A stretch of DNA of 64,000 nucleotides from assembly GCA_002328025.1 (NCBI GenBank), contig DCVE01000003.1:17222-81221 (forward strand), in the 5' to 3' direction. The notes beneath the pieces are model-generated. The model ran no database searches. It worked only from the letters and a program-made list of their open reading frames with translations, and was not told the DNA's origin. The DNA is from Patescibacteria group bacterium UBA2196. GTDB lineage: Bacteria; Patescibacteriota; Patescibacteriia; UBA2196. The translations under genes were made by a program, and so were the position numbers. The first letter of the stretch is position 1; every line of letters starts with the position of its first letter. This document shows positions 34,236 through 58,363 of the stretch, one piece after another.

Positions 34236-34254
34236 AAAGCTTGTTCTTATTATT

Positions 34255-37200: not shown

Positions 37201-37257
37201 ACTTACCAAGTAGGGAAAGTATTTTTTATAATTATATTTTTTTAGAGTCAAAAACAT
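34255..37257 (-). CDS. VirB6/TrbL-like polytopic T4SS channel protein with long C-terminal extension
   Basis: signal peptide, about eight TM helices in the first ~400 aa (Trp/Leu-rich TrbL-like region), then ~600 aa of Lys/Glu-rich coiled coil. Size and topology resemble PrgH/ConG/TcpH. Confidence 0.65.
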   Translation of the reverse strand: MFLTLKKYNYKKYFPYLVSVFILILFPRSVFADTSNTLGSILVSLLSWLFQSFVYIMGNLLVKAIEILIQVASYTDFINSPIVNKGWVVIRDVCNIAITIVLLLMAFYTVLRAKSYQYQTLLPKLLLAAILINFSKTIAGLCIDLAQVFMMTFVNAFREAAAGNLTYGFGINDIISVRNTARGGVGAGAGLESSVDNWSVLGALALGALMVLVAFLVVISLVMMLLWRILYLWFLVMLSPIAFMAGVLPGEGESKVKEWWSTFIKYLIQGPIVAFMLWLSLAVISEMTAEKHIVALQFKSAVSQGNVQASDPSWQAFASKASGTQNLVDYLVTCGLLLLTLKIASQSGVAGASFAGTAFGKLEGAGKWIQRRPQALGRKAWKKTKASYVGQGVTALAQRGSRTWVGRTIGLDKEHTEMQEAKKKARMQEYLGGRKGAIERFEWQKAMKAKKDMEDAGDFKNSKTRKDALGAARDKGDLSRAVAAMMEMAKSQELTAEETKKFFEKFEGTMKTEAGKERLRGYLSTAWDTQEKAGDKSVPLKRNFGINKSGEYVELTEDDRMANVKKGYKNVKTQDLIDGSKLKAMASLPRNNKAVHEFYSMAADRTDLGYLSTTERNQIIDQIDNILADDEANNQTIIGTNEEDSTRRAKMVKLRNELVAMKDAKNYNPQTREIRADVASESDTMGRARVAPGTGSSGFLNASVTNGVGKREDPGYLVNKRKKIITAEAQKDKEERVLGIHEETEVGEAVKKQIIADMDLQPALDLIYEARQEAAKNLTQANTDILKNKVSELVDSIEKKVESSKINLINSDTGQKYAGTELVEEFEKSKMYKAFNDLMYAQGSDVINTTDSIIMDIQDSSNWKKTFKQFLINEEKGYRNTPAARQKVRQKTMKVASKVKTNLGALKGPQHQAAIPNLVGAPTSVQLTTTKEIKRLAKSMRQLGDYAGLINDQTYLNDLNEFDAQFEEYKTKSTDLERTAARTAMETIAKRVLGRFEPLT

Positions 37258-42064: not shown

Positions 42065-42733
42065 TTATTTGATATTTAAAGTCAGATTATTTAAAGTTAA
42101 TTTCATCTCGGTTGCCAGTCCATTGTCCAAAAACATTTTAGCTTGCTCGGGAATTAATTTCATTTCTACGGTCCCAACCTGTAACGCCTTAAAAGTCAAA
42201 ACTGCTAAAATTCCATTAGTTCCAGTGTAGCCGTCATCACTATCTTGATAATTTGCATCACCCGGCTTACCGCGCGTGACTTCCAAACTATTTTTTTTAA
42301 CTTCATTCACAATACCCATATTTAAAACTGAATTTTTCGTCTCAGCAATGTTATTTTTACCTGCAAAAGACACAAGTTTATCATCAAAGCTTACGACTGC
42401 TTTGGCCAAAACAATATTTGCGCCCTGAGTGTCCAAAACAATATTGACCTTAAATTCATCGCCTAAAGCAACCTCTTTTTTATCGCTTATTAAACTGATT
42501 GTACCCCGCCGTTCGAGTGGTAAAACTTCTTTTTGCACTACCGGTTTGGTATTTAATTGTTGTAAAGCATTTTGAACGTTGTTATTTTGAATTTGTTCTG
42601 TGGGTTTGATAAAAATAAACACCAAAACAATCACTAGCATCAAAACCGCCGCCATAACTGCTGCCAAAAACCACATTTTTTTATGATTTTTATTAATTGG
42701 ATTATTGTTTGTTGGTAAAATGTTTTCGGTCAT
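42065..42733 (-). CDS. membrane-anchored cohesin-like domain protein (putative)
   Basis: N-terminal TM; mature domain ISLISDKKEVALGDEFKVNIVLDTQGANIVLAKAVVSFDDKLVSF...GILAVLTFKALQVGTVEMKL matches the cohesin beta-sandwich pattern. Confidence 0.35.
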   Translation of the reverse strand: MTENILPTNNNPINKNHKKMWFLAAVMAAVLMLVIVLVFIFIKPTEQIQNNNVQNALQQLNTKPVVQKEVLPLERRGTISLISDKKEVALGDEFKVNIVLDTQGANIVLAKAVVSFDDKLVSFAGKNNIAETKNSVLNMGIVNEVKKNSLEVTRGKPGDANYQDSDDGYTGTNGILAVLTFKALQVGTVEMKLIPEQAKMFLDNGLATEMKLTLNNLTLNIK

Positions 42734-42759
42734 AAAATTATTTTTAATTATTTATTATT

Positions 42760-45700
42760 TTATCTTTCTCCGGTTCTTAAAAAGCAATGCTTGGTGGGAT
42801 CAATATTTTCCAAATCGCAAGCTGTGCCGCTTTCGTTACCGACTGACTCAACATTTTTATACCAATAATATTCACAGGCCGGTGTTTGATTGGCGCCATA
42901 AACGTTATAAAGTGAAGAATATTGATAAGGCAACAAAGATGCATCGCACAATTCCGGCACATACGGATCTTGATATTCCTGACAACCACTTTCTGCACCG
43001 TCACATAAAGCGCTCCAGCTGGTACAAATACCACTCTGCGCAAAAGTAATATAATCTATGCAGTCATTATTGCCATTACAAATATTACTATCTGGGTGAG
43101 TTGCAGATCGTCCACCTAAACAGTATTTTTGTTCGCCACTTAATTCTTTGGAACTGACACAAAAATCTCCAGTCCCACAGTTTGCATCGCTAACACAGTT
43201 TTTACTGGTATTATTATAACAATAACCATTTGTAGTCACACAAAAATCACCAGTTCCAGTCACGCAGTTTGTATTGACGGTGCATTTTACACTTGTATTA
43301 TTATAACAATAACCATTGGAACTGGGGCAAGTCTTACCTTCTTCACCAGCAATCCACCAACCAAATTGACCGTTATAGTCTTTAAACTCACACACTCTTT
43401 TGCTTGGATTTTTATACAAAGCCGCACCACCAGTATATTTATAATTCACACAACTTTCATTTTCATTTGTACAGGTTTGGTTTTGTTTAATTACGGTTAA
43501 AGTATCAGTGAAGCTAAATTTAGCGGTGTCGGTTGGATTAAAACGATTACGCGCCAAAAGACCCAGCTTGGCGCAACCGGGAGTTTGACATAGTTTATTA
43601 CGATCATAAACATAATAGACTGGTTGCAAAACTCCGGCTGTATTTTTTTGACCAAAGACCTCACAACCCACTACTTCTTCCAAACACAGCTTAGAAAACT
43701 TTTGTAAATTCCACACCCTGCCAGTATTGTCTTTATATGCTTCACAAGAACTCATACCGATGATGTTGTCACACACAGGCGCGGCAGTCCAGGAATTTTT
43801 AATAAACAAAATATTATCAATTTTTTTCAACACCACATTATCAAGATACAAATCACCCATATTTTCAATTCTTAAAATTGAATCTGTATAATCACCGGCT
43901 GGTAATTCACCAAAATTAACTGCCGCTTGTCCATCAAACAATTGCCATTCGTTTGTAATGGTACCACTCACTGTGCCTGATATAACATTGGTTCCACTAG
44001 CCAAAGAAAAGGCAAAGGTGGCTGATCCTGTACCTTTGGCCAAAAATGATAACACATAGCTACCGCCGGCCACTAAATCACCGTTATTTAATTTGTGTTC
44101 AGTATTATCAGCCAAGTGTAAAGAGTGTCCACCACGCCGCACAGATTCATTACTGATGGTTCCCGCTGTCCAACCTTCTACAGATCCACCTTCAAAATCA
44201 TCACTTAAAATTACTTGATAATTATAACTGGAATTATCACGATATAACCGACAACCAGCATTATTGGCTTGACAACGCGTAGACAACGATGGCATAGCCA
44301 TATAAAGACACTGCCCAGTCGTCCATTTACCATTGGTTGTTTCGCAATCAGTTTGATTAGCGATTGTGCGCCTGTAAGGATGACAATCTTCGGCGGCAAA
44401 AATAACTGTAGCAAAATCTACCGCATAATATTGATTAGTCGTTGAATTATAAACTTCGCGACAATCAATTCCCGCCGCACCAAAATTGCACACTGTACCC
44501 ACCGGCGTATTACCACTGGCTTGCAGTTGCCACTTTTTCAACTGAAAACCAGATGTATCAGAACCTTCCCAGGTATAAAAAGTTTGCACATCTGGATCCG
44601 TCGGGTTAACACACATTCTTAAATAAGAAAAATATTCTCGTCCTTCACCGCCTCTGGCCACTTCATCTAAATTAGTAAATTCATCACAACCAGCTTCAGT
44701 ACACTTTGTGGCTGTGGTGGATAAAAAAGATTCAGCCGCCACTCCAGCTTCAAAATTGGTTTCTTTTTGTGTATAGGTTCTAAAACCAACGCACACGGCC
44801 GGACACTCATCATTCCAATTACCAGTTAACACATCGGCATCAGTGCAAGAATTAGTACCATCAGTACATTTACGTTGATTAATTACTGCAGACACCACTG
44901 GAGATTTAATAGTGACTGGTGTATACAAGCGACACGAAACATCGTCTTCTGCACACGACAAAGCAAAATTAGCACAATATTTATTGCCACTTAAAACGCA
45001 TTGTTTAATATCTTCACGCCAATAGTGACCATCAGCTACACAAGCGGCCTGATTTAAACCAAATTCAATAGTCGTATAGCCAGCACAACCGTTAATTGCT
45101 GGGTTAGCATACTCTGGCGCTAATTTTAAATTAACATCAGTCGCTAAATAACCAGCCGCATTTGGGTTATTAAAACCACCACTTACCAAAGCACTCGCCT
45201 GCTGTTGCGACAATGGTGTCTGATTGGGATTTAAAATTCTAGTTAAAGCCTGGCAACCTTCTTCTCTGGCATCACAAGCCTGTTCACTGGCGTAATATCT
45301 TAAACTTGTTTCTGTTGGGCATGCCCAAGTATCGTCTGTTGGATTTAAATTTTTACAATATGCATTACAACCAGCCGCTCCACAACTTTCCAATGTGTTG
45401 GTTAGATAAGCTGCCTCTTCCAAACCAGTTGAGGTTAGACTTTGGCAAGAATTAAAATATGAAGGACATGAACTACCCTGAATTCTCCAAATTGGTTTTT
45501 CAGCCACGCAATAACCAAATTCATTGCAATCCTTACCATTATCGCTTTCTGCAATACAACTTCGCTCCTTGGCACAATATGTGTTGCGCACAATGTAAGT
45601 GGAAAATTCATCGGGCGGACACTCTATTTTATCATTAAAAGAAGTATCTCGATCACAAACCTCGTTTGTTGACACCACGTCTGGACCCGGACCTTCCAAA

Positions 45701-47196
45701 TCACACACCGTAATTGGAGCTTTTAGTTGCCAATTGGGATCAACTAATCTATAAAAAGGTGACTCTGGATTGTCATAAGCATCCAATAAATCTTGCAAAG
45801 TCATTTTTACACCGGCTCCGGCCGCATCTTTATTAAAATTTTTAATATACTCTGCCGCCAATTCCCACCCGACTGGCACAATCCGATATTTACGTAAAAT
45901 CAAAATTGAACGCATAGGAAATCCGTCTCTAAAACTCGGCTCAGTTTGGCTGGTTGGATTAAAACCAAAAACAGCGTTGGGCTTTTTTTTGGCCAGTTCG
46001 GCCACAGTATTTTTTTGCTCAATCGCGGTGGCAAAAGTCGTATCAATGGTGTTGCAATATTGCGCGCCGCCATATTCAGATGTACCACAACTGGCTGAAA
46101 GTTCATTCACCACATTAATCTCTCCGCCGACGTTATAATCCGGTTTTAAAAGTTCGGCAAACTGATCTGTAGCTGCTGGCCCACTAGAAAGACTGCCAAA
46201 TAAATTTAAAACAATTGTTCTGTTTGTGTCAGCCGCCGGATTCATGCCTTTTGTAAAGGCCCGATTCAAAAGTTTTGAAACCAAAGTGTTGGTAAAAAGA
46301 CCAATTGCATCAGCCGCAGCTTCACCTGTATAAACACCATAGGGTTTTAAAGAATCACTAATCATACCAGCCGCATAGCCACTATAAAAAGCAGCCGGAG
46401 TTTTTATTTTCCCAGTAATGGTACTTTCTAAGTTTTTAAAACCTTGATTAGCCTGTTGGTTAATCTTGGCTGTTTCTTTTTGTAAAATCTGTTTTTGTCT
46501 AGCTTGATCCACCATGGTTAAATAAATTCCAAAATCATTCGCCCCAGGATGAAAAGCTGTGGACACTCCAAACAGATCATTAAATTGTATTTTTTTTAAA
46601 TCACCAACATTTTTTTTGATGTCCACCCAATCACATGGTGGACGTTGCGGTTCAAAAGCCGAGCGAGCATAGATATCAAGTTGAGCTTTTAAAAACGGAC
46701 GATCAATTGGTTGACAAAAATTCACCCCCCAGGTTTTTCCTATTTCAACAAAGGCCACACCCAAAGCTTCATCGCCAACTTTTTGCAAATACTTATCAAA
46801 GGGCAAATCCACATACAAAGGTTGCTGACCTTTGCCGCCTGTAGCCAGCTTAGTGGCATAATCATAAGCCACACGATTAAATAAATATTTAATACCGTTT
46901 GTGTAAGTCAACGCTGCTGCATTTTCTCCATATATTTTAATTGTCTCCCAGACCGTTTTTAAAATTGTCATTAAACGTGCACCAATATCAGCTGTTACCA
47001 AACCCGGGGCTGCTACAGATCTTAGAGTTGGAATCGAATCTAATGACTTAGTTCTTGTGCTATTTAATTGTTGAGAAATCGGTATTGCCTCCTGTGCTTT
47101 CTGTGCTTTAACATTTTCTGGCCACAAAAAAACCACAGCTGTCAAAGAAAACAACATGGAAAAAAGTGTGACTGAGATTAAAAGTTTTTTGAGCAT
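42760..47196 (-). CDS. giant (about 1478 aa) secreted Cys-rich protein
   Basis: the ORF-track start at 47220 is a TTG; the in-frame ATG at 47196 begins a proper signal peptide MLKKLLISVTLFSMLFSLTAVVFLWP. More than 90 Cys; tandem ~84-bp repeats at 43158-43326 encode NGYCYNNTS.KC..NC.TG.GDFCV. Confidence 0.6.
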   Translation of the reverse strand: MLKKLLISVTLFSMLFSLTAVVFLWPENVKAQKAQEAIPISQQLNSTRTKSLDSIPTLRSVAAPGLVTADIGARLMTILKTVWETIKIYGENAAALTYTNGIKYLFNRVAYDYATKLATGGKGQQPLYVDLPFDKYLQKVGDEALGVAFVEIGKTWGVNFCQPIDRPFLKAQLDIYARSAFEPQRPPCDWVDIKKNVGDLKKIQFNDLFGVSTAFHPGANDFGIYLTMVDQARQKQILQKETAKINQQANQGFKNLESTITGKIKTPAAFYSGYAAGMISDSLKPYGVYTGEAAADAIGLFTNTLVSKLLNRAFTKGMNPAADTNRTIVLNLFGSLSSGPAATDQFAELLKPDYNVGGEINVVNELSASCGTSEYGGAQYCNTIDTTFATAIEQKNTVAELAKKKPNAVFGFNPTSQTEPSFRDGFPMRSILILRKYRIVPVGWELAAEYIKNFNKDAAGAGVKMTLQDLLDAYDNPESPFYRLVDPNWQLKAPITVCDLEGPGPDVVSTNEVCDRDTSFNDKIECPPDEFSTYIVRNTYCAKERSCIAESDNGKDCNEFGYCVAEKPIWRIQGSSCPSYFNSCQSLTSTGLEEAAYLTNTLESCGAAGCNAYCKNLNPTDDTWACPTETSLRYYASEQACDAREEGCQALTRILNPNQTPLSQQQASALVSGGFNNPNAAGYLATDVNLKLAPEYANPAINGCAGYTTIEFGLNQAACVADGHYWREDIKQCVLSGNKYCANFALSCAEDDVSCRLYTPVTIKSPVVSAVINQRKCTDGTNSCTDADVLTGNWNDECPAVCVGFRTYTQKETNFEAGVAAESFLSTTATKCTEAGCDEFTNLDEVARGGEGREYFSYLRMCVNPTDPDVQTFYTWEGSDTSGFQLKKWQLQASGNTPVGTVCNFGAAGIDCREVYNSTTNQYYAVDFATVIFAAEDCHPYRRTIANQTDCETTNGKWTTGQCLYMAMPSLSTRCQANNAGCRLYRDNSSYNYQVILSDDFEGGSVEGWTAGTISNESVRRGGHSLHLADNTEHKLNNGDLVAGGSYVLSFLAKGTGSATFAFSLASGTNVISGTVSGTITNEWQLFDGQAAVNFGELPAGDYTDSILRIENMGDLYLDNVVLKKIDNILFIKNSWTAAPVCDNIIGMSSCEAYKDNTGRVWNLQKFSKLCLEEVVGCEVFGQKNTAGVLQPVYYVYDRNKLCQTPGCAKLGLLARNRFNPTDTAKFSFTDTLTVIKQNQTCTNENESCVNYKYTGGAALYKNPSKRVCEFKDYNGQFGWWIAGEEGKTCPSSNGYCYNNTSVKCTVNTNCVTGTGDFCVTTNGYCYNNTSKNCVSDANCGTGDFCVSSKELSGEQKYCLGGRSATHPDSNICNGNNDCIDYITFAQSGICTSWSALCDGAESGCQEYQDPYVPELCDASLLPYQYSSLYNVYGANQTPACEYYWYKNVESVGNESGTACDLENIDPTKHCFLRTGER

Positions 47197-47204
47197 GGGG
47201 AGAT

Positions 47205-47230
47205 AATTTTCAATTTCCAATTTCTAATTT
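47205..47230 (-). promoter_or_regulatory. AATTTCT-motif copy upstream of the 1486-aa gene
   Basis: AATTTTCAATTTCCAATTTCTAATTT immediately 5' of the start region. Confidence 0.4.
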
Positions 47231-47264
47231 AAAAACAATTTACAATTAACCAATAATTTAATTT

Positions 47265-47615
47265 CTAATATGTTTTTCTCAAGGTTGAAGAAATTCTGTT
47301 AAAAATAAGAACTAATTCATGAGCTTCTTTCCACAAAACTCTCAACTTGTCTTTTATTTCTATATTAGTTGTCACTAAAAGCTCAATCCAATATTCTGTT
47401 TCTTGAGCCTCTCGACGACAAATGAAAATTTTACTGGAAAAATCTTTTCTGGATGATGCGCCATTTACTTCTCTATAGTTTGCCCCAATACTGGTTGCTG
47501 AACGCAACAATTGATTGATTATGTTTCTATTTAAATCTGATATTTTTATTTTTGAAATTTCTTCAATCACCGCTTTACCAAATCTCTTTGTCCTTTCTTC
47601 CAAATCATAATTCAT
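47265..47615 (-). CDS. four-helix-bundle protein (TIGR02436, 23S rRNA intervening-sequence protein family)
   Basis: LRSATSIGANYREVNGASSRKDFSSKIFICRREAQETEYWIELL matches the family signature (RAavSi.aNIaEG..r.s.kdf..fl.iArgS..E...wl.l). Confidence 0.8.
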   Translation of the reverse strand: MNYDLEERTKRFGKAVIEEISKIKISDLNRNIINQLLRSATSIGANYREVNGASSRKDFSSKIFICRREAQETEYWIELLVTTNIEIKDKLRVLWKEAHELVLIFNRISSTLRKTY

Positions 47616-47619
47616 AATT

Positions 47620-47668
47620 GAAAAATTAGAAATTGATCATTGTTTAGAAATTAGAAATTGAAAATTTT
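47620..47668 (-). promoter_or_regulatory. AATTTCT-motif copies upstream of the four-helix-bundle gene
   Basis: GAAAAATTAGAAATTGA and TTTAGAAATTAGAAATTGAAAATTTT. Confidence 0.4.
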
Positions 47669-47672
47669 AAAT

Positions 47673-48464
47673 TTACTTGAGTGATTCCTGAAAAACCCGC
47701 ATCAAAGTTGTGTCATCAATTTGATTCAACTGTTCTTCCGTCATCTGTCCGCTGGAAAGTAATAACTCTCTAACTTGCGCCACAGTCAATTGTTTTAATT
47801 GTGCTTTTTCCTCGTCAGTCAAATCAACCGTCGTGGTAACCGCAGACCCTTGATTTAAATTTTCTATATCCAGCGGTGAAGCAATAATGTTTTCTACCGT
47901 CGTTACGGTTGTTGTGTCAATGGCACGACAATTTTCTCCAGTTGGACACAACGGATCATGTTCTGAATCAATTTCCTGTTTGTCGGTATAACCATCCGAA
48001 TCAGTATCGGCTAAATAGGGCGAAGTGCCATAAACAAATTCTTCATCAAAATCACTCAAGCCATCCTGATCTGTATCAATGTTTTTTTTATCCACCAAAG
48101 CCTGTTCGGTTATGGTGCTATTTGTAGTATTAACAACTGTATTTTGCTGTTGCGCCAAAAAAGGGCTGGAGATGCTGTGAAATAAATTTAAAAAAGCATA
48201 CCCAAGCGTCCCAAAACCCAAAATAACCAAAACCAAAAACATAACCTTGTGATTTCTGCTATTTTTAACATTCATTTGGACATTGGCGCCACCATCTTCG
48301 TGCCACTCATCATCATTATTATTTATTTTATCATATATACCGTCATTCATCATATTTTTTTCAGCCAAAGCAAAATTTTGAACGCCGTTTTCATCGCTCT
48401 TCAGTCTTTGGTTTTCCATTTTGTCCAAGACACTATTTTCTTGCTCAAAATCTTGATAAGCCAT
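47673..48464 (-). CDS. bitopic membrane protein with thrombospondin-type-3-like Ca-binding repeats
   Basis: central TM; DTDQDGLSDFDEEFVYGTSPYLADTDSDGYTDKQEID repeats, similar to the C-terminus of the 1634-2968 product. Confidence 0.55.
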   Translation of the reverse strand: MAYQDFEQENSVLDKMENQRLKSDENGVQNFALAEKNMMNDGIYDKINNNDDEWHEDGGANVQMNVKNSRNHKVMFLVLVILGFGTLGYAFLNLFHSISSPFLAQQQNTVVNTTNSTITEQALVDKKNIDTDQDGLSDFDEEFVYGTSPYLADTDSDGYTDKQEIDSEHDPLCPTGENCRAIDTTTVTTVENIIASPLDIENLNQGSAVTTTVDLTDEEKAQLKQLTVAQVRELLLSSGQMTEEQLNQIDDTTLMRVFQESLK

Positions 48465-48537
48465 GAAAATATTTATTCACTTTTACAACTATATTATACC
48501 AGAAAATAAACAAAGCGCCAAAACTTATATCAAAGGC

Positions 48538-49485
48538 TTAAAATATAATTTCCCGCGTCAGATCCACCCAATTTTTAACAGTCAAATTTTGCGCCCGAAC
48601 TTTTTCATCCAAACCAATTTTTTGTAAAATTTCTACCACCTTCTGCATCTCAATTTGCAAACCATTGGCCAAATTATTTTTCAACATTTTTCTCTTGGCG
48701 CTAAAACCAATTTTTACTAATCTCATGAATTCTTTGTTTTCATCCCCTCCTTTATAAGGAGGGGTCTCATGCCCTGCTAAGGGCAGAGGGGGAGGTATTT
48801 TTTTAACTTTGAGTTTTATTATCACACTATCCACTTCTGGCGCTGGCCAAAAACAATTTCTAGAAACCTGAGCCACAATTTCACAATCAGCATAAAACTG
48901 ACACAGCACAGACAAAATACTCATCTGACCAACTTTGGTACAAATTCTTTCACCCACTTCTTTTTGCAACATCAAAACCATCAAATCGGGCCGCACCAGT
49001 CTCCCTCTTGATAAGGGAGAGATACAGAGGGTGTCAGTATGTAAAAATTTCCACAAAACTTGGGTGGAAATTGAATAAGGTAAATTGGCAATAATTTTAT
49101 AATTTTTTTGCGCCACCTTCTCCTCTCTCCCCCTTAATAAAGGAGCGAGCGAGAGGGGGTCAATTTTCAAGGCATCTGCGTTAATAATTTCCAGATTATC
49201 CCTAGTTGTCAGTTGTTTTTTATTTAATGTTAAATATTCTGCCAAACGCTTATCTTTTTCTATAACGACCACCTGACCGGCATGTTTAAGTAATTCTTGA
49301 GTTAAAATTCCCAAACCCGGTCCAATTTCTAAAATCAAATCGTCTTCTTTAATTTCTCCAGCAGTAACCACCTTCTGCAAGACATTTTTATCAATCAAAA
49401 AATTTTGCCCCATTTGTCTGCTGGGCTTAACATTTAACTTTTCACAAACTTTTTTAATCTCCGGAGCTGTAAAATTCATAGACAA
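48538..49485 (-). CDS. rsmA: 16S rRNA (adenine1518/1519-N6)-dimethyltransferase with three short in-frame insertions
   Basis: GQNFLIDKNVL, SAM-binding ILEIGPGLG, NLPYSIST, C-terminal FSAKRK. About 315 aa against ~270 typical; the extra peptides coincide with GC-rich palindromic DNA. Confidence 0.85.
   Translation of the reverse strand: MSMNFTAPEIKKVCEKLNVKPSRQMGQNFLIDKNVLQKVVTAGEIKEDDLILEIGPGLGILTQELLKHAGQVVVIEKDKRLAEYLTLNKKQLTTRDNLEIINADALKIDPLSLAPLLRGREEKVAQKNYKIIANLPYSISTQVLWKFLHTDTLCISPLSRGRLVRPDLMVLMLQKEVGERICTKVGQMSILSVLCQFYADCEIVAQVSRNCFWPAPEVDSVIIKLKVKKIPPPLPLAGHETPPYKGGDENKEFMRLVKIGFSAKRKMLKNNLANGLQIEMQKVVEILQKIGLDEKVRAQNLTVKNWVDLTREIIF
48744..48795. repeat. GC-rich palindromic insertion 1 inside rsmA/ksgA
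   Basis: CCCCTCC-TTTATAA-GGAGGGG and GCCCT-GCTA-AGGGC hairpins; encodes PPPLPLAGHETPPYKGG in frame. Confidence 0.5.
48988..49035. repeat. GC-rich palindromic insertion 2 inside rsmA/ksgA
   Basis: TCTCCCT-CTTGATA-AGGGAGA hairpin; encodes ISPLSRGRLVRPD in frame. Confidence 0.5.
49111..49161. repeat. GC-rich insertion 3 inside rsmA/ksgA
   Basis: CTCCTCTCTCCCCCTTAATAAAGGAGCGAGCGAGAGGGGG; encodes DPLSLAPLLRGREEK in frame. Confidence 0.45.
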
Positions 49486-49547
49486 ATTGCTTATTTTATT
49501 TAAATAAAATATACTATAGATAAAATTAAATATTTAATCATACAAAT

Positions 49548-49886
49548 ATGAATTGGCCAATTATTATTCTCATAATTACTCAATTACTTTTTACAACCAG
49601 TGATCTCTTGGCTAGAAATTATATGCCTAAACAGGGTTTTGCATTAACAACTTTTTTAAGTAGTTGGTTTCTAGCATATTTTTTTATAAGAATTATTGCC
49701 ATGTTCGGCCAACTTTATGTTTTTACCCACATAGAGCTAGGCAAAACCATGGCTCTCTTTGGTGCTGTTTCAATTATTTTGGCTAATCTTTTAGGTTTTT
49801 TATTATTAAAAGAATCTATGTCTGTTGGTGCCTACATAGGTATAATGCTAGCAGTTAGTGCTTTTATTGTTTTGGCATTAAATTAA
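49548..49886 (+). CDS. small four-TM membrane protein (DMT/EamA- or SMR-like)
   Basis: 112 aa, four hydrophobic helices. Confidence 0.45.
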   Translation: MNWPIIILIITQLLFTTSDLLARNYMPKQGFALTTFLSSWFLAYFFIRIIAMFGQLYVFTHIELGKTMALFGAVSIILANLLGFLLLKESMSVGAYIGIMLAVSAFIVLALN

Positions 49887-49890
49887 AAAT

Positions 49891-50565
49891 TTAAAATTTT
49901 ATCTCTATTTCTCCTTGTCTTAAAATCTTTACTTCTTTACCTTCAACCTTTACAATGGTTGAGGGTTTTTTGGTTTTTAATTTGCCAGCATCTAAAATAA
50001 AATCTGGTTTAAATTTTCTGTTTTTAAATTGATTAAACACCGCTCGACCGCTTAGACATTCTTTTTTACCAGACAAATTTGCCGAAGCTGAAGTAATAAG
50101 ACCACCACATTCTTTTGCCAATTCCCGCATTACTTTATTACCAGATACTCTCACTGCCACGCCGTTATCACCTCCCTCTAACGGGGATGAAACATTGTAA
50201 ATATTAGATTGATTACAAACTTTTATTTTTGCCTTTTGACTTTTTTCTTTTATTCTTAACACTATTGTTAAAGCTCCTGGCCAATATTTCTCCGCTAACT
50301 CCCTCTCTTTTTTATTTAACTTAAATTTTTTTTTGACAGTTACATAACTATCAGCGATCAAAAGCAAAAGTTTTTTAAAATTTCTGCCTTTAATTTTATA
50401 AATTTTTTCAACCGCTTTTTGATTACTAGGGTCGCAGGAAAAACCATAAACCGTTTCTGTGGCCACAGCAATTACCGCGCCGACTTTTAATTCATCCGCA
50501 ACTTTTTTAAAATTTAAATTTTTCACCAATAATGTTTTCATAAGTACAGTTTTAGAAATAGACAA
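49891..50565 (-). CDS. tsaC: L-threonylcarbamoyladenylate synthase (YrdC/Sua5 family)
   Basis: AVIAVATETVYGFSCDPSNQKAVEKIYKIKGR matches the YrdC signature. Confidence 0.85.
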   Translation of the reverse strand: MSISKTVLMKTLLVKNLNFKKVADELKVGAVIAVATETVYGFSCDPSNQKAVEKIYKIKGRNFKKLLLLIADSYVTVKKKFKLNKKERELAEKYWPGALTIVLRIKEKSQKAKIKVCNQSNIYNVSSPLEGGDNGVAVRVSGNKVMRELAKECGGLITSASANLSGKKECLSGRAVFNQFKNRKFKPDFILDAGKLKTKKPSTIVKVEGKEVKILRQGEIEIKF

Positions 50566-50619
50566 GCGTACCAGCCTGCCTATTTTTTAAATTAAAAACT
50601 AACAAACCCAACTCTCATA

Positions 50620-53600
50620 TTATGGAGTGGTACCGTAACAGACGGCCTGAGAAACTGAATCTGGCGTGCCCCAACAAGTCAACAAACTCGCCATGTCACC
50701 AGATTCAATTATACTATCACCCGCCGCCACAGGAAAAATATCTAAACTTTTGGTTGCATCACACATAGCGTGCTTATAATTTATAATGCCAGTTGTTTTT
50801 CGCCAAAAAGATAATAAAATACCAAAATCAATTATATCAATCCGACCATCGCAGTTAAAATCCGCTTTCATAACTGGCGGTACCCAACAAATATCAGCCC
50901 CTTCCACACTGACTAGATAGCTATTATAACTCAAATTATTGGCATTATCTTCAAAGACCACATAAATACCTTGATTTCTGGCTGCTGTGGGTATGGGATT
51001 GGTTGACTTCTTACCCTGATTATTATTACTTTCAGTTGGAGTTAAACGGAACGCTGCTTCTCCACTGTAAACACCACTTTGATCCACGGTAAAATAATAG
51101 CCAAAATGACCACAATCTTGCGGACAGTATAGTTTGTTAACTATACCATTTTCAAAATGTTCAAAATCATAGTCACACACATTATCACCACAGTTGGCTG
51201 CGGTATTTGTACCTTCACCTTCCCCAATATTAGGTTTTAGATTAGTACCAGCAAAAGTTACGTAAGAAATATTACGTGCATCAACAACCGTTTCTACATT
51301 TAAATTATCACCATCATCAATCAAGCTAACTTCCGTACCAAAATTATAAGCGCCCAATCTTTCACCACCATTTACACTAGTACCTAAATTTCCATAAAAT
51401 AAATAACCATGGTGTGGATTACTTGGATTATCAACATTTCCTGGCTGTGCCACATACACAATATCATTTGTAGTTTTATTAATATTTAAACTTGTAAAAT
51501 CACTAGTCGCTTGCCAGCCCAATCCTTGAGTCACGCGGTTAACCGCATCAAAAGAATGGCTGGTAAAATTATATTTTCTATAATAAGCACCTTCTGGAAA
51601 ATGAGACCAAGAAAAATGTACACCGCCCTGGCCATCTGCAACAATGCCTCCCTGACGCGTTCCTTTATCGTCACTGTCTGGAACACTGTCAACCTTTATT
51701 AATTGCTGACCACTAAAAACCCGCACATCCTCATCAATACCAAAATAAAGATAAGAAATGTGAGGCAGGTGTTGGAAAGAAACGTGTACTTGTCCAGATG
51801 CGCTAACAGCTATTCTTGGCTTTTCAAGTTCTCTGGTATTGTCTGTATTAATATACAACGGGCGACCATTGGCCCAAGCCACTGTGTTATTAATAATTCT
51901 ATTATACATAATTTGTTGGCCACCACTAACCAACTGTGACCAAACAATGTGTGAATTATTATTTCCATCAACAGCAATTCTTGTGTCAGCTCCGTTACCC
52001 AAAAGAATGGGTGTTCCCAATCCAGCACAAGTATATTTAACATACCAAACCTCACAAGAAACTAATTCTCCGGTGTTATTCTTTATTCTACAATTTTTAT
52101 CATAAGCTATGTGCACATTACCTTGCCTATCGGTTGCGGCCGAAGGGTTGCGCGAACCAGTAGCAATCAAAACAGGGGTGCCCACACTACCAGGACCGCC
52201 GCCGGCACAACCAGTGTCAACGACACATTGAGTTGTTTGACAACCAACCGGACAACCGCTTCTGGTTTGTGCCCTCTGAGTCGCGCTACAACCACTAGTT
52301 CCACAACTGCTCGCAGGTTGCCAGACACCACAAGTGCTGCAATTAACACCAGTTCCGCCACTACAAGTTAATTTAAAATTAGAAAAAGTAATACTCGGCA
52401 CCGTGCCATAATCAGATCTGCCCAGACGCAAATAGGGTAATATTGGATTATACTCTTTTCCACTAGCAGAATAATCATATTGCCCAATTTGGTAATAATT
52501 ACTAGTTGGGCTTGTCCTAAAATAATAAATCATCTGACCATTACCCCAAACTATCCGAAAGCCATAGGTTTGCGATGCATTCCAATTATAAGCCACAGCG
52601 GTTGTTGAATCACCACTGATTGAGTTTGAACTAAAGTCAAAAGTCCCTTCAAAATTATCATGTGTTGCAGTACCAACTATATTACCGTCCACACCATCAA
52701 TAGTATTATTTACTTTCAACCTAGGTCTCATTTTACCAGTATAAGCACCAGCACCTTTTGCATCACCAAAAATCATTAATAAAGACTTTGATCGATTATT
52801 ATAAACCGCATTGTTGGCGACATTATCAGAATCGGCGTTATCCCACATGGTAAAAATATCGTAAGTCTCGCCAGTTAATTTGGCGTCTTCAAGACCACGA
52901 ATTTCAAATTCTAATTGACCACTTTCAAAAGGTTGCGTAAAATGATATTCAATATAATTACTAGCAGCCGTAGTTGTCCAACCATTAGTAGAAAAATTGC
53001 CACCACTCACAACCATCCCACTGCCAGGATTACTGGTTAGAGGGGTGTCAACAGATACACCACCATTACAATTACCCACGCCACTCAACTGATCGGAACC
53101 ACATTGTTGTGCTGCAATACCGATATCTGTCACCAGCTGTCGACCATTAGTACCCAAATTATCTCTCAAATTTTTGCCATTTTTTAAATCTAGACCAGCA
53201 AGATTATGAAAAATCCAACCAGCCGCACCAGCCTCACAAGCACTTCTAACTGCCTGAATAAAATGAGTGGCATTTGAATCATCGGGATACACCTGTTCTT
53301 CCTGCAAATAAATTGGCTTATTGACATTAATACTGTTTAAATAATTTTTTACTAAATTGATGCGATTCGCCGTTGCAGAATACCAATCACTACTTCGATC
53401 AAAATGTGGGGTTAAAAAATCAACCGCAAAGGGCGGCGACACCTCTTCGTTAATTGCTGTTCGATTAAGAGAAGTTAGAGTATTACCATCAACAATATGA
53501 CGACTAGTGCCGGAAACGGTTAACTTACGACTGGAATCAGCATTTCTTACAGCCTCCACAATCGGTAATAACGCAATATGCTGCAAAGGGTAAAAATAGG

Positions 53601-54312
53601 CACTACTGGAACCACCGGTGTTATCATGCTCATTATAAATATCAAAAATAACATTATCATAAGTTGATAAAGCCGCAGCAATACGAGAAGCGGCTAACTC
53701 TAATTCGTGCGGATCGGGGTTTTGTGTCGTACCATTCAAATCACCATAAAACGAAGGATTGGTGTCTAAAATTGTAACATCTACAATCATAGCCCTCTCG
53801 GCTGCTCTTTCAATAATAAATCGCAATTTGTTAATAAAACCGTTCAAAGTGGCATCCAGATTATAGACCGTACTGTTGCGATCGCGTATGGAAGAATAAA
53901 TATTTTCTGCCTTATTCTGGGCACTCCAATCCGCCCAAACACGGATTAAATTATAGTGATTGCTAGCCAAAAAATTCAAATCAGCGATTATGTTTTCTTC
54001 TGTTTCATTAATGGCATCGAACAATGATATTCCCAACAAAAAAGTTGGTGAACCGTTGATAATAAAATCATCCCCAGAAATAGAAAAATTTTCAATGCTA
54101 CTTTGCGCCATTTTGACACTATATTCTCCGGCTACTTCTCCGGTTGGAGGTACATAAAAAATTTTAGACACTTCTTCGGTTATACCACTTTGCGCTGCCA
54201 CAAGATTACCAATAAACACAAAGACAACAATCAATAAAAATGATTTTATCCAAAAGAAATAATTCATTTTTTTTAATCTATTTTTTATTTTTTCACTTAG
54301 TTTCATAATCAT
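50620..54312 (-). CDS. giant (1230 aa) secreted protein with possible clan GH-A TIM-barrel domain and C-terminal dockerin-like module
   Basis: signal peptide; N-terminal ~400 aa with NLIRVWADW...DIYNEHD resembling GH5/GH-A motifs (weak); C-terminus ADFNCDGRIDIIDFGILLSFWRK plus a second D..S.I...D.A.LL.CW repeat (dockerin-like, 50650-50870). Confidence 0.55.
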   Translation of the reverse strand: MIMKLSEKIKNRLKKMNYFFWIKSFLLIVVFVFIGNLVAAQSGITEEVSKIFYVPPTGEVAGEYSVKMAQSSIENFSISGDDFIINGSPTFLLGISLFDAINETEENIIADLNFLASNHYNLIRVWADWSAQNKAENIYSSIRDRNSTVYNLDATLNGFINKLRFIIERAAERAMIVDVTILDTNPSFYGDLNGTTQNPDPHELELAASRIAAALSTYDNVIFDIYNEHDNTGGSSSAYFYPLQHIALLPIVEAVRNADSSRKLTVSGTSRHIVDGNTLTSLNRTAINEEVSPPFAVDFLTPHFDRSSDWYSATANRINLVKNYLNSINVNKPIYLQEEQVYPDDSNATHFIQAVRSACEAGAAGWIFHNLAGLDLKNGKNLRDNLGTNGRQLVTDIGIAAQQCGSDQLSGVGNCNGGVSVDTPLTSNPGSGMVVSGGNFSTNGWTTTAASNYIEYHFTQPFESGQLEFEIRGLEDAKLTGETYDIFTMWDNADSDNVANNAVYNNRSKSLLMIFGDAKGAGAYTGKMRPRLKVNNTIDGVDGNIVGTATHDNFEGTFDFSSNSISGDSTTAVAYNWNASQTYGFRIVWGNGQMIYYFRTSPTSNYYQIGQYDYSASGKEYNPILPYLRLGRSDYGTVPSITFSNFKLTCSGGTGVNCSTCGVWQPASSCGTSGCSATQRAQTRSGCPVGCQTTQCVVDTGCAGGGPGSVGTPVLIATGSRNPSAATDRQGNVHIAYDKNCRIKNNTGELVSCEVWYVKYTCAGLGTPILLGNGADTRIAVDGNNNSHIVWSQLVSGGQQIMYNRIINNTVAWANGRPLYINTDNTRELEKPRIAVSASGQVHVSFQHLPHISYLYFGIDEDVRVFSGQQLIKVDSVPDSDDKGTRQGGIVADGQGGVHFSWSHFPEGAYYRKYNFTSHSFDAVNRVTQGLGWQATSDFTSLNINKTTNDIVYVAQPGNVDNPSNPHHGYLFYGNLGTSVNGGERLGAYNFGTEVSLIDDGDNLNVETVVDARNISYVTFAGTNLKPNIGEGEGTNTAANCGDNVCDYDFEHFENGIVNKLYCPQDCGHFGYYFTVDQSGVYSGEAAFRLTPTESNNNQGKKSTNPIPTAARNQGIYVVFEDNANNLSYNSYLVSVEGADICWVPPVMKADFNCDGRIDIIDFGILLSFWRKTTGIINYKHAMCDATKSLDIFPVAAGDSIIESGDMASLLTCWGTPDSVSQAVCYGTTP

Positions 54313-54325
54313 TAATCATAGCAAA

Positions 54326-57300
54326 TTAAAAACCAAAATCATACAGGTCAGTCCCGCGTTGATTCATAGTGCTTTTAAAAACGATGCGACTGCCTTGCCA
54401 ATTGACAGAAAAATCTGGTTGAGCAATCAACAAAGACCCCATGGCTGGTAAAAATCCACTCCGATTGTGTATTAAACGCCTGACACCACCCGACCCATCC
54501 GTGTTAACCGCAAAAATCTCAAAGGACATCGGATACCATTCCGAAGGATTGATTAAACTTAAATTAGAAAACGAAGACACAAAAATATTTTGATAATGGT
54601 TAGTTTGCCAATTAGGAGCTGAAAATACCACCTTTTCGGAACCGGTTCGGTGTAATAATAAAGTTACTACGCGACTACTTGAATTAAGTGTAATCTTAAT
54701 AATATCAGCCTGATTGGTTATACCGCTCATGGGGTGAATGGATAAATAATAATTACCAGCTGTGGTAAACATAACTTCTGTGCCAGTTGTATCAAGACCA
54801 GTTTCAAAATTAACTGCTTCGCTGTGCATTTGACGAATAAAATTCATATTCTCACTAAATAACTCTACACCATAATTGCGCTCTTCACGATCATTTTTAC
54901 GCCACTGGACAATCACAAAATTACCACCCGCCGAAATGGTATGACCAGCCACACCTTGAGTTGCATCATTAAACTGGCTGACAGTCCACGAACTGGTCGG
55001 GATATAATTTATATCATTTACAAAATCATATACAAAAATAAATATGTTTCCACCCAAAGTACCAGTCAAACTAGCTCGGCTACGACTGTCATTTAAATCG
55101 CCACCAGTTCCCCAACTTACTTCAGTATATGTACCGCTAAAATCTCTGACCAAAGTGCAAACTAAAGTAGTGACATTGCAACGTTGTATTGTTTGACCAT
55201 TTACTTTATAAACAAAATTAGAATCATTGGTCCATCGTATCTGAGCTTCGGGTAAAACTGTCTCCAATAAACCCAAATCTGTCCCGTCACTTCTAAACAA
55301 ACGCGTACCATCGTGTCGCCGCGCATAAAACATTGAACCATCGCTGTTCCAGTGCGCCACCGCGCTATAATTTAATGAAACACCCGTATCACTGCCACCA
55401 GTATCTACACCGGCCGCGCCAGTTAAGCGATTAACCTGTGTTCCAAAAACCGTATCACAATAATTTCCCCCCACCAGTGGTGGTAAGGCCTGTGCATCAA
55501 GCATATTTAAAACACCGCTTGAAAATTGGTTTGCAACATTGGCTGCACAAACACCGGCACTTACTTGACAAGCAGTGGCAGCTGCATTTCTTTCGTAACC
55601 CAAAAAACATTGCCAAGACTGACAATCTGCAGCACACACCGCATTGGCTGGTGTTCCACTAATAATCGCACTGCTATCACATTGTTCTTGATCGGCAGTA
55701 AAAATTCCATCACCACAAGATGTTGCTGTGATCGTAGTATTACTAATCAGACAGCTGCCGCTTGTTGGTGTACCCCAACAATTAAGTAAACGAGCAAAAT
55801 CGCTTTCATTAATAACACCATCGCCCGTTGCGCTGGTTGTATCAAGACCAATCGGTGCAATATCTAAATTTTTATGTTCATCACCACAACCATTATTTAA
55901 ATAATTTTTTATACCATCAGTTGTAACTTTTTTCCAATAAGAAAGCAAAATACCAAAATCTTTTATATCCACTACCCTGTCGCAATTAAAATCTGCCACA
56001 ATGCTTTGGGCTGGAGGTGGGGGTGGCGTAACAGAATTACCAGTAAAAACAAATTTTATAACATCCGCAATTACTGTACCATTGGCACTATTAGCAAAAA
56101 TTTTTACATAACTACGCGTACTGCTTGTACTTCGTGGAAAGTAATAACTAACTGTACCAAGACGATTCCATTGGCCCGCGTTAACACTCTGATTAATAGT
56201 ACCACTTGCCACAACCGAACCACCGCTATTAATCTCATATGGCACGTTGGTAGCTTCAGTAACTGTATTGGCTGTATTACCACGCCAGCCATGCCATTCA
56301 TAAACATCATAATTGCCAGCCACGCCAATTGTGGGCTTAAAAGTCGCTGTTGCACCAGAACTACCGTCTGTATAAAAAGCACCATAACCTTCAAAGCTCG
56401 CTTGTGGGTATCTCCACCCACTGGTATCAGGATCGCCGTAGTCCCACTGGCTCCAATATGGATTACTATCATTCTCCGGCTCTTTATCCCAATTACCAGT
56501 CAACTGAACTGGCTCACTCCCTGGCGAAGTGTCGTTATTAGGATAATTACCAACCATAATATCAGAAACAACATTATAATCTCGGGTGGTAAAAAGTAAT
56601 ATACCATCACCAGTATCATCGTCGTCTCTAGCAGAATTTGTTCCCAGAGTTCCACTCAATGTAACGCTGGTAAAAGTCGAACCATTATTAAAATTTGGAT
56701 CCTGCCCACCCCGAAAACGATAATATGTTGTTCCTGGGGTATAGCCAGACAAAGCAGCAATCTCGCTTTGAGTAATTGTTTGATTAATAAAAGTCGGATT
56801 AACAATAACCAATCCATTATCAAAAAAACGCGCAGTAACACATCGGTGTCCATTGGTTTCAGAACAATGTCCAGTTAATTCTTGTGGGGCACCTTTTGGA
56901 TAACCCAAATTAGTTTCATATTCGTCATACCACAAACCTAATTGAAACCACGAGCCAAAATTCCGACCATAAAAGGCATTGCCCATCAAAGCTGTGGCTA
57001 AACCATATCGCATATCACTAAACCTATCCTTCCAATATCTCCAATAATTTTCGGACATAGCCTCCACTGCTTTTAATGCCCCGTCTTGAGCAACAACATA
57101 TTTATCATCGCGATCCCATAATCGTAATTTACTGTAATAATTTGGCCAACTATATTGACCCAGAATTCCATACTCTAGAAAAAAACCTTGATTCCAAACA
57201 ACAGTTGAATCTCCTGGAAAACTATTGCCGTTGTTTGCTATAACAATTGTTTTGGCTCCCCCTTTTAAAGCAGATAATTTTTGATTTTCATAATTCCACA

Positions 57301-58363
57301 TATACTGTAAACCCTGATGCCACTGATCACTAATCCAATTAAGACCGTGTTCGTCATAATCTCTTTTCCAATTTAAATCAAAATCAACATTATTAGCCAA
57401 ACTAACTTCACCACCTTCACTATTTAACGGCCAATCAGTTCGATAGGTTGCATAATGCGAACCATCATAAGGCGCAAAATTGGTTGCATCAACAACGGCC
57501 AATCTATCGTGATCAATAAAATATCTAGCTGCTTCTTGACCACTATAAGGATTGGCTGGAGTAATGTTTGGTACCCAATCAGCAGCTTTAATTGGTTGAC
57601 GTAAATATGAACCCGCTGGGTGATGACCATCAATGCCGCTAAGTTCAACCAAAACACTATTTGTTTCATCAACAGAACCATAAGAAATACGATCTGGCTT
57701 ATAACTGCCAAGGTCGGGTATGTTTCTATTATTGACAACAAAAAAACTTGAGCCATTGCTGGCATATGGAAAATTATTTGTATCAGGCGGAACCGACCAA
57801 CGTGGAAAACCATCACCAATAGTATTTTTGACCCTAACACTATAACTTGCGGGTGTTAGATCTTCGGCTAATTGTGGATCAAAATAACGAAACGTGTGAT
57901 ATTGAAAATTGCTATTACTAGACATCATATCTTGTAGTGTTGCCAAAAGAATCATGTTAGGATTAGCCCGCTTAATGGCCGGAGCGCATCTTGCATCAGT
58001 ACTAAAATTTAGACCGACCATGTCAAACTTGGAACGAAACTGACTACAACCAGTAGGATGTGCTTCATTCTTTGGCCAAAAAAAAGCCACTCGCGGATAA
58101 GGTGGGTTCCATTTAGGATCTATTGTCTGCGTTATCTGGACTGTAAATTCACCAGCCACCGCGCCGCTATCAAATGCGTAAAATTTATTATACAAAATTT
58201 GACTGACTAAATTAGTAACCTTAAAAAAACTCAGCCAACTTAAACCAAAAAAAATAAAAAGCGCCGTTAAGACAGCGGCACTTAAAAAAAAATTTATACC
58301 AAAAACTTTTGCAGTTTTTTTCTTTCTGCTGGCCTTTTTACTTCTGTTGATAATTCTAATCAT
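54326..58363 (-). CDS. giant (1345 aa) secreted paralog with internal dockerin-like module
   Basis: N-terminus similar to the 1230-aa neighbour; ADFNCDRVVDIKDFGILLSYWKK...ATGDGVINESDFARLLNCW at about 55760-56000; C-terminal ~480 aa beta-rich. Confidence 0.55.
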   Translation of the reverse strand: MIRIINRSKKASRKKKTAKVFGINFFLSAAVLTALFIFFGLSWLSFFKVTNLVSQILYNKFYAFDSGAVAGEFTVQITQTIDPKWNPPYPRVAFFWPKNEAHPTGCSQFRSKFDMVGLNFSTDARCAPAIKRANPNMILLATLQDMMSSNSNFQYHTFRYFDPQLAEDLTPASYSVRVKNTIGDGFPRWSVPPDTNNFPYASNGSSFFVVNNRNIPDLGSYKPDRISYGSVDETNSVLVELSGIDGHHPAGSYLRQPIKAADWVPNITPANPYSGQEAARYFIDHDRLAVVDATNFAPYDGSHYATYRTDWPLNSEGGEVSLANNVDFDLNWKRDYDEHGLNWISDQWHQGLQYMWNYENQKLSALKGGAKTIVIANNGNSFPGDSTVVWNQGFFLEYGILGQYSWPNYYSKLRLWDRDDKYVVAQDGALKAVEAMSENYWRYWKDRFSDMRYGLATALMGNAFYGRNFGSWFQLGLWYDEYETNLGYPKGAPQELTGHCSETNGHRCVTARFFDNGLVIVNPTFINQTITQSEIAALSGYTPGTTYYRFRGGQDPNFNNGSTFTSVTLSGTLGTNSARDDDDTGDGILLFTTRDYNVVSDIMVGNYPNNDTSPGSEPVQLTGNWDKEPENDSNPYWSQWDYGDPDTSGWRYPQASFEGYGAFYTDGSSGATATFKPTIGVAGNYDVYEWHGWRGNTANTVTEATNVPYEINSGGSVVASGTINQSVNAGQWNRLGTVSYYFPRSTSSTRSYVKIFANSANGTVIADVIKFVFTGNSVTPPPPPAQSIVADFNCDRVVDIKDFGILLSYWKKVTTDGIKNYLNNGCGDEHKNLDIAPIGLDTTSATGDGVINESDFARLLNCWGTPTSGSCLISNTTITATSCGDGIFTADQEQCDSSAIISGTPANAVCAADCQSWQCFLGYERNAAATACQVSAGVCAANVANQFSSGVLNMLDAQALPPLVGGNYCDTVFGTQVNRLTGAAGVDTGGSDTGVSLNYSAVAHWNSDGSMFYARRHDGTRLFRSDGTDLGLLETVLPEAQIRWTNDSNFVYKVNGQTIQRCNVTTLVCTLVRDFSGTYTEVSWGTGGDLNDSRSRASLTGTLGGNIFIFVYDFVNDINYIPTSSWTVSQFNDATQGVAGHTISAGGNFVIVQWRKNDREERNYGVELFSENMNFIRQMHSEAVNFETGLDTTGTEVMFTTAGNYYLSIHPMSGITNQADIIKITLNSSSRVVTLLLHRTGSEKVVFSAPNWQTNHYQNIFVSSFSNLSLINPSEWYPMSFEIFAVNTDGSGGVRRLIHNRSGFLPAMGSLLIAQPDFSVNWQGSRIVFKSTMNQRGTDLYDFGF

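Follow-up and report, generated by a model that had tools for sequence, protein, structure and literature searches.

We analysed a 64,000-nucleotide (nt) stretch of contig DCVE01000003.1 (positions 17,222 to 81,221, forward strand) from Patescibacteria group bacterium UBA2196; this whole stretch is called the window, and all positions below are in window coordinates. Within it, we found that a small bitopic protein of 222 amino acids (aa) carries a genuine cohesin domain beside a type IV secretion system (T4SS), and that two large putative glycosidases, of 1230 and 1345 aa, carry modules that appear to belong to the dockerin family. Pairing between these two types of module is plausible, and we tentatively read the locus, with slightly less than even confidence, as a non-cellulosomal cohesin–dockerin surface system whose cohesin side lies in a cassette adjacent to the T4SS. 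A cohesin on a bitopic protein together with dockerins on two putative glycosidases would follow the logic of a minimal anchoring system. The three open reading frames and coordinates on which a first-pass annotation of this DNA had built were all recovered, on the minus strand, as are all genes of the region. That annotation had proposed a scaffold-and-enzyme tether for two giant secreted paralogs; the cohesin on a membrane anchor and the dockerins on putative glycosidases stand, but the two giants are not paralogs.

Cohesin domains on two adjacent membrane proteins

The 222-aa protein consists of a basic N-terminus, a transmembrane helix, a linker of ~35 residues, and the cohesin domain. Because the basic N-terminus precedes the transmembrane helix, the protein probably adopts an N-in topology, which would place the cohesin domain outside the cell. 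Searched on its own, the sequence matches the Pfam cohesin model PF00963 with an E-value of 6e-5 and 23.7 bits over model positions 6-138/139, slightly below the gathering cut-off of 24.1 bits. The match is stronger at the level of the family. An exhaustive search found relatives in 93 representative clusters, 68 of them with E<1e-10, and nearly all of these relatives are 190-240 aa long and share an identical layout. Pfam Cohesin was matched by 58 of the 72 family members (best E 5.6e-12), and the family profile matches solved cohesins, for example, 3l8q at 4e-10. A homolog with 75% identity bears the name “cohesin domain-containing protein” at NCBI. No member of the cohesin family was found in a scan of viral contigs, and a scan of a genome collection with a 12-sequence cohesin alignment returned 2 loci only.

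The predicted structure leads to the same assignment. An AlphaFold2 (AF2) model of the 222-aa protein has a predicted local distance difference test (pLDDT) score of 90 overall and ~98 over the cohesin domain, which is all-beta. When this model was compared with the PDB by Foldseek, the top 49 matches were cohesin or cohesin-like modules, with E-values down to 4.6e-9 and target-normalised template-modelling scores mostly of 0.5-0.77 (maximum 0.77), and they span cohesin types I, II, and III as well as non-cellulosomal modules. The earlier cohesin call is thus borne out by the Pfam matches of the family, the AF2 model, and the fold matches in the PDB. An acidic loop, RGxPGDxDYxDSDDGYTG, is nearly invariant across the small-cohesin family and specific to it, and it lies in a stretch that does not align to canonical cohesins.

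A second cohesin-like domain was detected in the protein encoded next door, a 1552-aa giant whose gene begins 6 nt downstream of the small cohesin gene. The hidden Markov model (HMM) of the small-cohesin family matches residues 222-364 of this giant with a domain E-value of 3.4e-12, and hhalign aligned the domain with the family at a probability of 97.3 (E 2.5e-11); the motifs RGxxGDxD and LDDGxGT are common to both. Orthologs of the giant also match the small-cohesin HMM in other loci (L001, L003, L007, L008, L022, L023, and L024). The genome, therefore, encodes two adjacent membrane-anchored proteins that bear cohesins. The 1552-aa giant also gives weak fn3 matches and has 37 cysteines, and its orthologs show weak CBM_4_9 matches, to which an NCBIfam search of the giants added nothing. 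We also considered a dockerin hidden in the cassette giants themselves, and rejected it, as no HMM or regular-expression match was obtained in any lineage inspected.

Dockerin-family modules

A regular expression for the F-hand dockerin loop, applied to the six-frame translation of the 64 kb, matched only ADFNCDGRIDIIDFGILLSFW and ADFNCDRVVDIKDFGILLSYW. Against Pfam Dockerin_1 (PF00404, gathering cut-off 22.9 bits), the isolated module of the 1345-aa protein scored 24.5 bits, above the cut-off, and that of the 1230-aa protein 16.7 bits, below it; the former scored 15.0 bits when the whole protein was searched. Dockerin_1 was matched by all eight aligned family modules (8/8, best E 6.2e-7), and one orthologous module passes the cut-off in its full-length protein at 23.1 bits. 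When the dockerin-family profile was compared with the PDB, all four matches at E<0.01 were dockerins, namely 2y3n_B (2.7e-4), 5n5p_B (7e-4), 1daq_A, and 2mte_A, and so were most of the weaker ones. Judged by their sequences, the dockerin modules are real at the family level.

The same C-terminal module is found in the homologs P0100, P0101, and P0102 of the 1230-aa protein, the last of them from Candidatus Kuenenbacteria, and the proteins encoded just upstream of these three also carry a dockerin-family module. These homologs came from a search with the full-length 1230-aa query; a word-index search with the dockerin modules themselves gave a single 121-aa fragment. A scan of viral contigs with the module gave four weak generic dockerin matches.

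Duplicated dockerin repeats had been annotated in both proteins, and of this claim the family assignment and the first loop hold, while the second loop is degenerate. Loop 1 is canonical in both window proteins (D-F-N-C-D-G/R-x-[IV]-D-I-x-D). Loop 2, which reads V-A-A-G-D-S-I-I-E-S-G-D and S-A-T-G-D-G-V-I-N-E-S-D, keeps positions 5, 9, and 12 and has lost positions 1 and 3. In L009 and L011, the orthologous modules have two canonical loops (DLNCDHKVDIID/DLNSDNKVDMVD and DLNCDGRVDVID/DINIDGAVNIVD). Four cysteines are invariant across the 8/8 family modules, one of them at position 4 of loop 1. They may form two disulfides, possibly with the help of the nearby DsbA, and the module may represent a disulfide-clasped dockerin variant. 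The helix that follows loop 1, DFGILLSxW, hardly varies between the two enzymes or among the lineages, whereas the remainder of these proteins diverges, which is the pattern expected of a binding surface. When the module was modelled by AF2 on an alignment of six sequences, the pLDDT was 46, and a helix was predicted right behind each loop (19-28 and 63-73).

Two alternative explanations bear directly on these module assignments. The first is that the matches arise by chance in low-complexity or acidic sequence and that there is no real cohesin or dockerin here. Searched one by one, the window proteins have Pfam scores at the curated cut-offs or a little under them, which would fit such an explanation, but the family-profile matches, the confident cohesin fold, and the cohesin and dockerin matches in the PDB make it exceedingly improbable, and for the cohesin they effectively refute it. 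The second accepts the dockerin-like modules and denies them a cohesin. Many non-cellulosomal dockerin-like sequences are orphan calcium-binding structural modules, and those described here could likewise be structural or glycan-proximal modules that are stabilised by disulfides and have no cohesin to bind. The degenerate loop 2, the four invariant cysteines, and the low AF2 confidence agree with this, as does a dockerin pair without a nearby cohesin in L009-L012, and dockerins and cohesins often lack an obvious partner in the literature (PMC9012536). However, the DFGILLSxW helix is almost invariant across lineages and both enzymes, as a binding surface would be, and the same genome encodes cohesins; we consider the orphan explanation distinctly unlikely.

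Two different putative glycosidases

A BLASTP comparison of the 1230-aa and 1345-aa proteins found two alignable segments only: the 88-aa module, at 52% identity (3e-19), and 56 aa near the N-terminus, which comprise the hydrophobic anchor and a G-x-VAGE[YF]-x-V motif. Paralogy of the two giants is excluded by this result; they are different enzymes in a conserved gene pair. This pair, [GHL15-like/Golvesin_C-dockerin][GH5-like-dockerin], is kept in three lineages, represented by the window, L009/L010, and L011/L012. The G-x-V-A-G-E-[YF]-x-V motif stands directly after the N-terminal hydrophobic segment in both dockerin proteins and in their homologs (L009-L012), and it might direct processing or sorting. 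A basic N-terminus and, after it, one hydrophobic helix are shared by all four cohesin and dockerin proteins, and the dockerin proteins, both predicted to be exported, are rich in cysteine.

The weak GH5-like signature (clan GH-A) noticed earlier in the 1230-aa protein was confirmed at 24.8 bits against a Pfam gathering cut-off of 23.5, and the homologs P0101-P0103 reach 37-40 bits, with P0102 labelled as a GH5 protein by NCBI. A PDB sequence search with the GH5-like domain gave no match. Six homologs all keep N227-E228-H229 and E338-E339, and, by their position, NEH (227-229) and EE (338-339) are putative sites of the two catalytic glutamates of GH5 enzymes, an acid/base within an N-E motif and a nucleophile. 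Putative lectin-like and propeller-like regions, recognised by inspection alone, follow the GH5-like domain. One relative of this domain, P0104, is fused to the peptidoglycan-binding domain PG_binding_1, which hints at a substrate in the cell wall or the bacterial envelope.

The 1345-aa protein has an N-terminal anchor, then a domain of ~550 aa, the carbohydrate-binding-like domain Golvesin_C, and the internal dockerin module. A PDB sequence search with its N-terminal domain gave no match. Over residues 67-873, the 1345-aa protein shares 40% identity with an 821-aa protein from a different lineage, and this ortholog has a weak GHL15 match (8.5e-5), Golvesin_C, and a C-terminal dockerin above the Pfam cut-off. 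A Cys-rich, propeller-like extension of ~470 residues follows the dockerin in the 1345-aa protein and is absent from the orthologs.

A conserved cassette beside the T4SS

The cohesin genes adjoin a complete-looking T4SS cluster (Table 1), whose layout matches the Patescibacteria-type T4SS described in a recent survey (PMC12102498). This layout and the homolog from Candidatus Kuenenbacteria both point to Patescibacteria as the probable source of the DNA. Two further proteins are encoded between the polytopic 1000-aa protein and PrgI, and no relaxase or coupling protein was found among the T4SS-region proteins scanned. The conserved cassette, which runs from the first giant through the cohesins and the polytopic protein to PrgI, TrsD, and VirB4, abuts a Patescibacteria-type T4SS in at least five lineages. 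The order of a transmembrane protein with TSP3 repeats, a giant, the small cohesin, a giant with a transmembrane helix and a cohesin, and the polytopic protein recurs in L001 and L007, with 75% cohesin identity, and in L008, L022, L023, and L024, with 34-41%. In L001, L008, and L022, the inspected DNA extends far enough downstream to show PrgI as well. The gaps between giant, cohesin, and giant are tight in the window (6-26 nt), the small cohesin gene beginning 26 nt after the 1486-aa giant gene. A distant member of the small-cohesin family adjoins a T4SS_pilin gene in L020. Operon boundaries could not be called from a promoter and terminator scan, whose counts were near the shuffle expectation.

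The DNA record of L008 (CAYSXS010000002.1, a contig of a metagenome-assembled genome), which has the same cohesin/T4SS cassette and Sua5-RsmA synteny, is titled ‘uncultured Gammaproteobacteria bacterium’, probably through an error of classification or binning. The gene for the 263-aa transmembrane protein is kept a short way upstream of the cassette giant in both L008 and L024. Its calcium-binding loops are DTDQDGLSDFDE and DTDSDGYTDKQE, and these duplicated DTDxDG loops make it another candidate for a calcium-dependent ligand of cassette proteins. Bacterial TSP3-type calcium-binding repeats occur in two window proteins, this one (47673-48464, minus strand) and another at 1634-2968 (minus strand). 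A gene for a 23S rRNA intervening-sequence protein (PF05635) is found at 47265-47615 (minus strand) in the window, at 14675-15031 in L022, and at 3186-3566 in L024; it sits at differing places in or beside the cassette according to lineage, which suggests a mobile small gene.

Table 1. Features of the cohesin, dockerin, and T4SS genes in the window
Feature	Position	Strand	Basis or remark
Small cohesin protein, 222 aa	42065..42733	-	Open reading frame at exactly this position
Transmembrane helix of 222-aa protein	residues 18-41, nt 42611-42682	-	AF2 model
Cohesin beta-sandwich of 222-aa protein	residues 76-221, nt 42071-42508	-	AF2 model, Pfam
1552-aa giant surface protein	37400..42058	-	N-terminal transmembrane helix, cohesin-like domain
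Cohesin-like domain of 1552-aa giant	residues 222-364, nt 40967-41395	-	Family HMM, hhalign
1486-aa exported giant, 67 Cys	42760..47220	-	Adjoins cohesin gene upstream
263-aa transmembrane protein, two TSP3-like calcium-binding loops	47673..48464	-	Conserved upstream of cassette giant
Putative GH5-like glycosidase, 1230 aa	50620..54312	-	Open reading frame at exactly this position
N-terminal signal/anchor of 1230-aa protein	residues ~16-45	-	
GH5-like domain of 1230-aa protein	residues 86-309+, nt 53386-54057	-	Pfam
Dockerin-family module of 1230-aa protein, C-terminal	residues 1142-1230, nt 50623-50889	-	~90 aa, four Cys
GHL15-like/Golvesin_C protein, 1345 aa	54326..58363	-	Open reading frame at exactly this position
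Golvesin_C of 1345-aa protein	residues 647-772, nt 56048-56425	-	Pfam, 47.6 bits
Dockerin-family module of 1345-aa protein, internal	residues 783-878, nt 55730-56017	-	~90 aa, four Cys
Patescibacteria-type T4SS cluster	24128..37257	-	Profile matches, layout
Polytopic 1000-aa protein	34255-37257	-	Putatively VirB6-like by topology and position
PrgI/VirB3	31618-32052	-	PrgI, 43.3 bits
TrsD, 237 aa, VirB4-N-like, separate, ahead of VirB4	30833-31546	-	TrsD/VirB4-N matches
VirB4, 628 aa	28860-30746	-	PF19044/AAA_10
T4SS_pilin-domain protein, 457 aa, 24 Cys	26160-27533	-	28.9 bits
DsbA, directly downstream of pilin-domain gene	24128-24856	-	

Cohesins and dockerins across lineages

Both module types occur together in the window and in its close relatives L001 and L007. 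In the other cassette lineages, we inspected ~6-10 kb to either side of the cohesin gene, and no dockerin module was found within these flanks in L008, L022, L023, or L024. Around the dockerin pair of L009-L012, the inspected DNA covers ~10 kb on the upstream side and 2.5-10 kb on the downstream side, and no cohesin was found there. A block of genes for leucyl-tRNA synthetase (LeuRS), HD, Sua5, and RsmA precedes the cassette in several lineages, and the dockerin-enzyme pair is inserted between HD and Sua5 only in the lineage of the window. Only there does the pair lie near the cohesin cassette, and four housekeeping-type genes separate the two in the window.

These neighbourhoods weigh against a cohesin–dockerin system, and so do several properties of the proteins themselves. 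Both dockerin proteins possess an N-terminal hydrophobic anchor of their own and, if this anchor stays uncleaved, a tether is less obviously needed. The isolated module of the 1230-aa protein falls under the Pfam cut-off (16.7 against 22.9 bits), loop 2 is degenerate in both window proteins, and the AF2 dockerin model (6 sequences, pLDDT 46) found no significant fold match. By neighbourhood, the cohesin is linked more closely to the T4SS cassette than to the enzymes with dockerins, yet pairing stays plausible, since the inspection of the other lineages covered ~6-10 kb on each side.

The cohesins might instead serve the T4SS cassette, where they would assemble or anchor the Cys-rich giants or bind the host surface as parts of an adhesin or scaffold, while the dockerins of the glycosidases bind something else or nothing. 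The giant-cohesin-giant-polytopic-PrgI order, which persists in L008, L022, L023, and L024 at the low cohesin identities given above, the tight gaps, and the neighbouring pilin gene in L020 all agree with such a role, and neither the cassette proteins nor the inspected flanks of those lineages contain a dockerin. In the survey of patescibacterial T4SSs, which reports no adhesins and makes no mention of cohesin, none of the PrgB type was found and VirB8 homologues were scarce, which leaves these roles unfilled (PMC12102498). On the other hand, this genome also encodes dockerin modules whose helix-1 surface is strongly conserved, and flanks of this length leave room for dockerins elsewhere in the genomes of those lineages. 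To our knowledge, every experimentally characterised cohesin ligand is a dockerin. Taken with these points, a role confined to the T4SS cassette seems to us somewhat unlikely, though it deserves serious weight.

In the cohesin–dockerin surface system that we tentatively favour, the canonical F-hand of loop 1 and the DFGILLSxW helix would dock onto one or both cohesins. The enzymes would thereby be kept or gathered on the cell surface close to the T4SS and the host-contact apparatus, where they would act on glycans, presumably of the envelope or the extracellular space. A bolder version can be drawn, in which the T4SS-side cohesins are the missing extracellular parts of the secretion system and recruit dockerin-tagged glycosidases to the site of host contact. 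They would form a modular envelope-breaching unit, put together by cohesin–dockerin contacts, that replaces VirB1 or adhesin functions, with the small cohesin perhaps standing in for a VirB8-like factor. We hold this version to be quite improbable.

Relation to known systems

The window does not encode a scaffoldin-based cellulosome, as it has one cohesin-type domain per protein (in two proteins) and two dockerin modules in 64 kb. A closer likeness is seen in OlpA and OlpC of Acetivibrio/Clostridium thermocellum (3ul4, 4dh2), in which one cell-bound cohesin tethers dockerin-bearing glycoside hydrolases, and the OlpA and OlpC cohesins are among the Foldseek matches of the 222-aa protein. The anchor here, however, is an N-terminal transmembrane helix and not SLH repeats or a sortase signal. 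Compared with the cellulosomal clostridia in general, the system proposed here has no multi-cohesin scaffoldin, carries a family-specific acidic loop in its cohesin, and has its genes beside a T4SS in a probable patescibacterium.

Non-cellulosomal modules offer a second likeness, since they too occur outside the degradation of plant cell walls, on various surface proteins and glycosidases. Examples are known from Archaeoglobus fulgidus (2xdh), from the GH84 toxin complex of Clostridium perfringens (2jh2/2ozn), and from anaerobic methanotrophic (ANME) archaea (Peer et al. 2009), and the non-cellulosomal cohesins 2jh2, 2xdh, and 2vo8 are among the fold matches of the 222-aa protein. Non-cellulosomal cohesins and dockerins are well documented from both bacteria and archaea (Peer 2009, cited in PMC9012536), and non-cellulosomal cohesin–dockerin pairs do bind (Peer 2009 and Haimovitz 2008, cited in PMC9012536). 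The present case differs from these precedents in its T4SS-adjacent cassette, in its taxon, and in a four-Cys dockerin with a degenerate loop 2. For the dockerin itself, the only PDB match that spans both halves of the module is 5n5p_B, from a type III scaffoldin of Ruminococcus flavefaciens, which likewise has a Cys at position 4 of loop 1 (DVNCDGDVNVAD) followed by a further Cys downstream; at E 7e-4 the similarity is modest, and it comes from another organism and a cellulosomal role.

Among Patescibacteria, the nearest comparison is SEML1_0315 of Southlakia epibionticum (Saccharibacteria), an envelope protein with a dockerin domain for which host-glycan targeting has been suggested (PMC10633639). 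Transposon sequencing showed that this dockerin protein and the T4SS are both essential in that species (Wang et al. 2023, PMC10633639). No cohesin partner is described there, and the class of Patescibacteria is probably different. The Patescibacteria-type T4SS, which is related to the MPF-FATA conjugation systems of monoderms, has PrgI/VirB3, TrsD, VirB4, and a VirB2-like pilin in one chromosomal cluster, as is the case here, but the upstream cassette of giants and cohesins lies outside the repertoire described for it (PMC12102498). Our literature search found no paper that describes cohesin–dockerin pairs in Patescibacteria or the candidate phyla radiation.

Other features of the window

The LeuRS encoded at 59107-62643 (minus strand) is 1178 aa long and contains a NUDIX domain (397-516) and a serine-hydrolase domain (642-797), both of which interrupt the protein after the editing domain and before the second half of the catalytic core. 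The syntenic LeuRS proteins of L023 (846 aa) and L024 (816 aa) are without NUDIX or serine-hydrolase domains. An identical 1178-aa LeuRS is present in several public sources, and so it is not a local assembly artefact.

Nearly all genes of the window (1-64000) lie on the minus strand, and the GC skew is negative in every 2-kb bin, with a cumulative value of -6.4. This is consistent with a single replichore in which genes are co-oriented with replication. A tripartite-efflux-like gene set, composed of a MacB/FtsX permease, an ABC ATPase, and an HlyD-like adaptor, was found at 9904-13679 (minus strand); it would be unusual if the organism is a monoderm-like Patescibacterium.

Implications

Patescibacteria are ultrasmall and depend on host bacteria, and, as described above, a T4SS and a dockerin-bearing envelope protein are essential in the one species tested genetically (PMC10633639). 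If the cohesins and dockerins of this window do not bind each other, they add another case of non-cellulosomal modules, which have been known since 2009. The membrane-anchored cohesins beside the T4SS may be among the surface components so far missing from the patescibacterial secretion system. If, moreover, they were to recruit dockerin-tagged glycosidases to the site of host contact, evolution would have turned cohesin–dockerin assembly to the service of epibiotic parasitism instead of the degradation of plant biomass.

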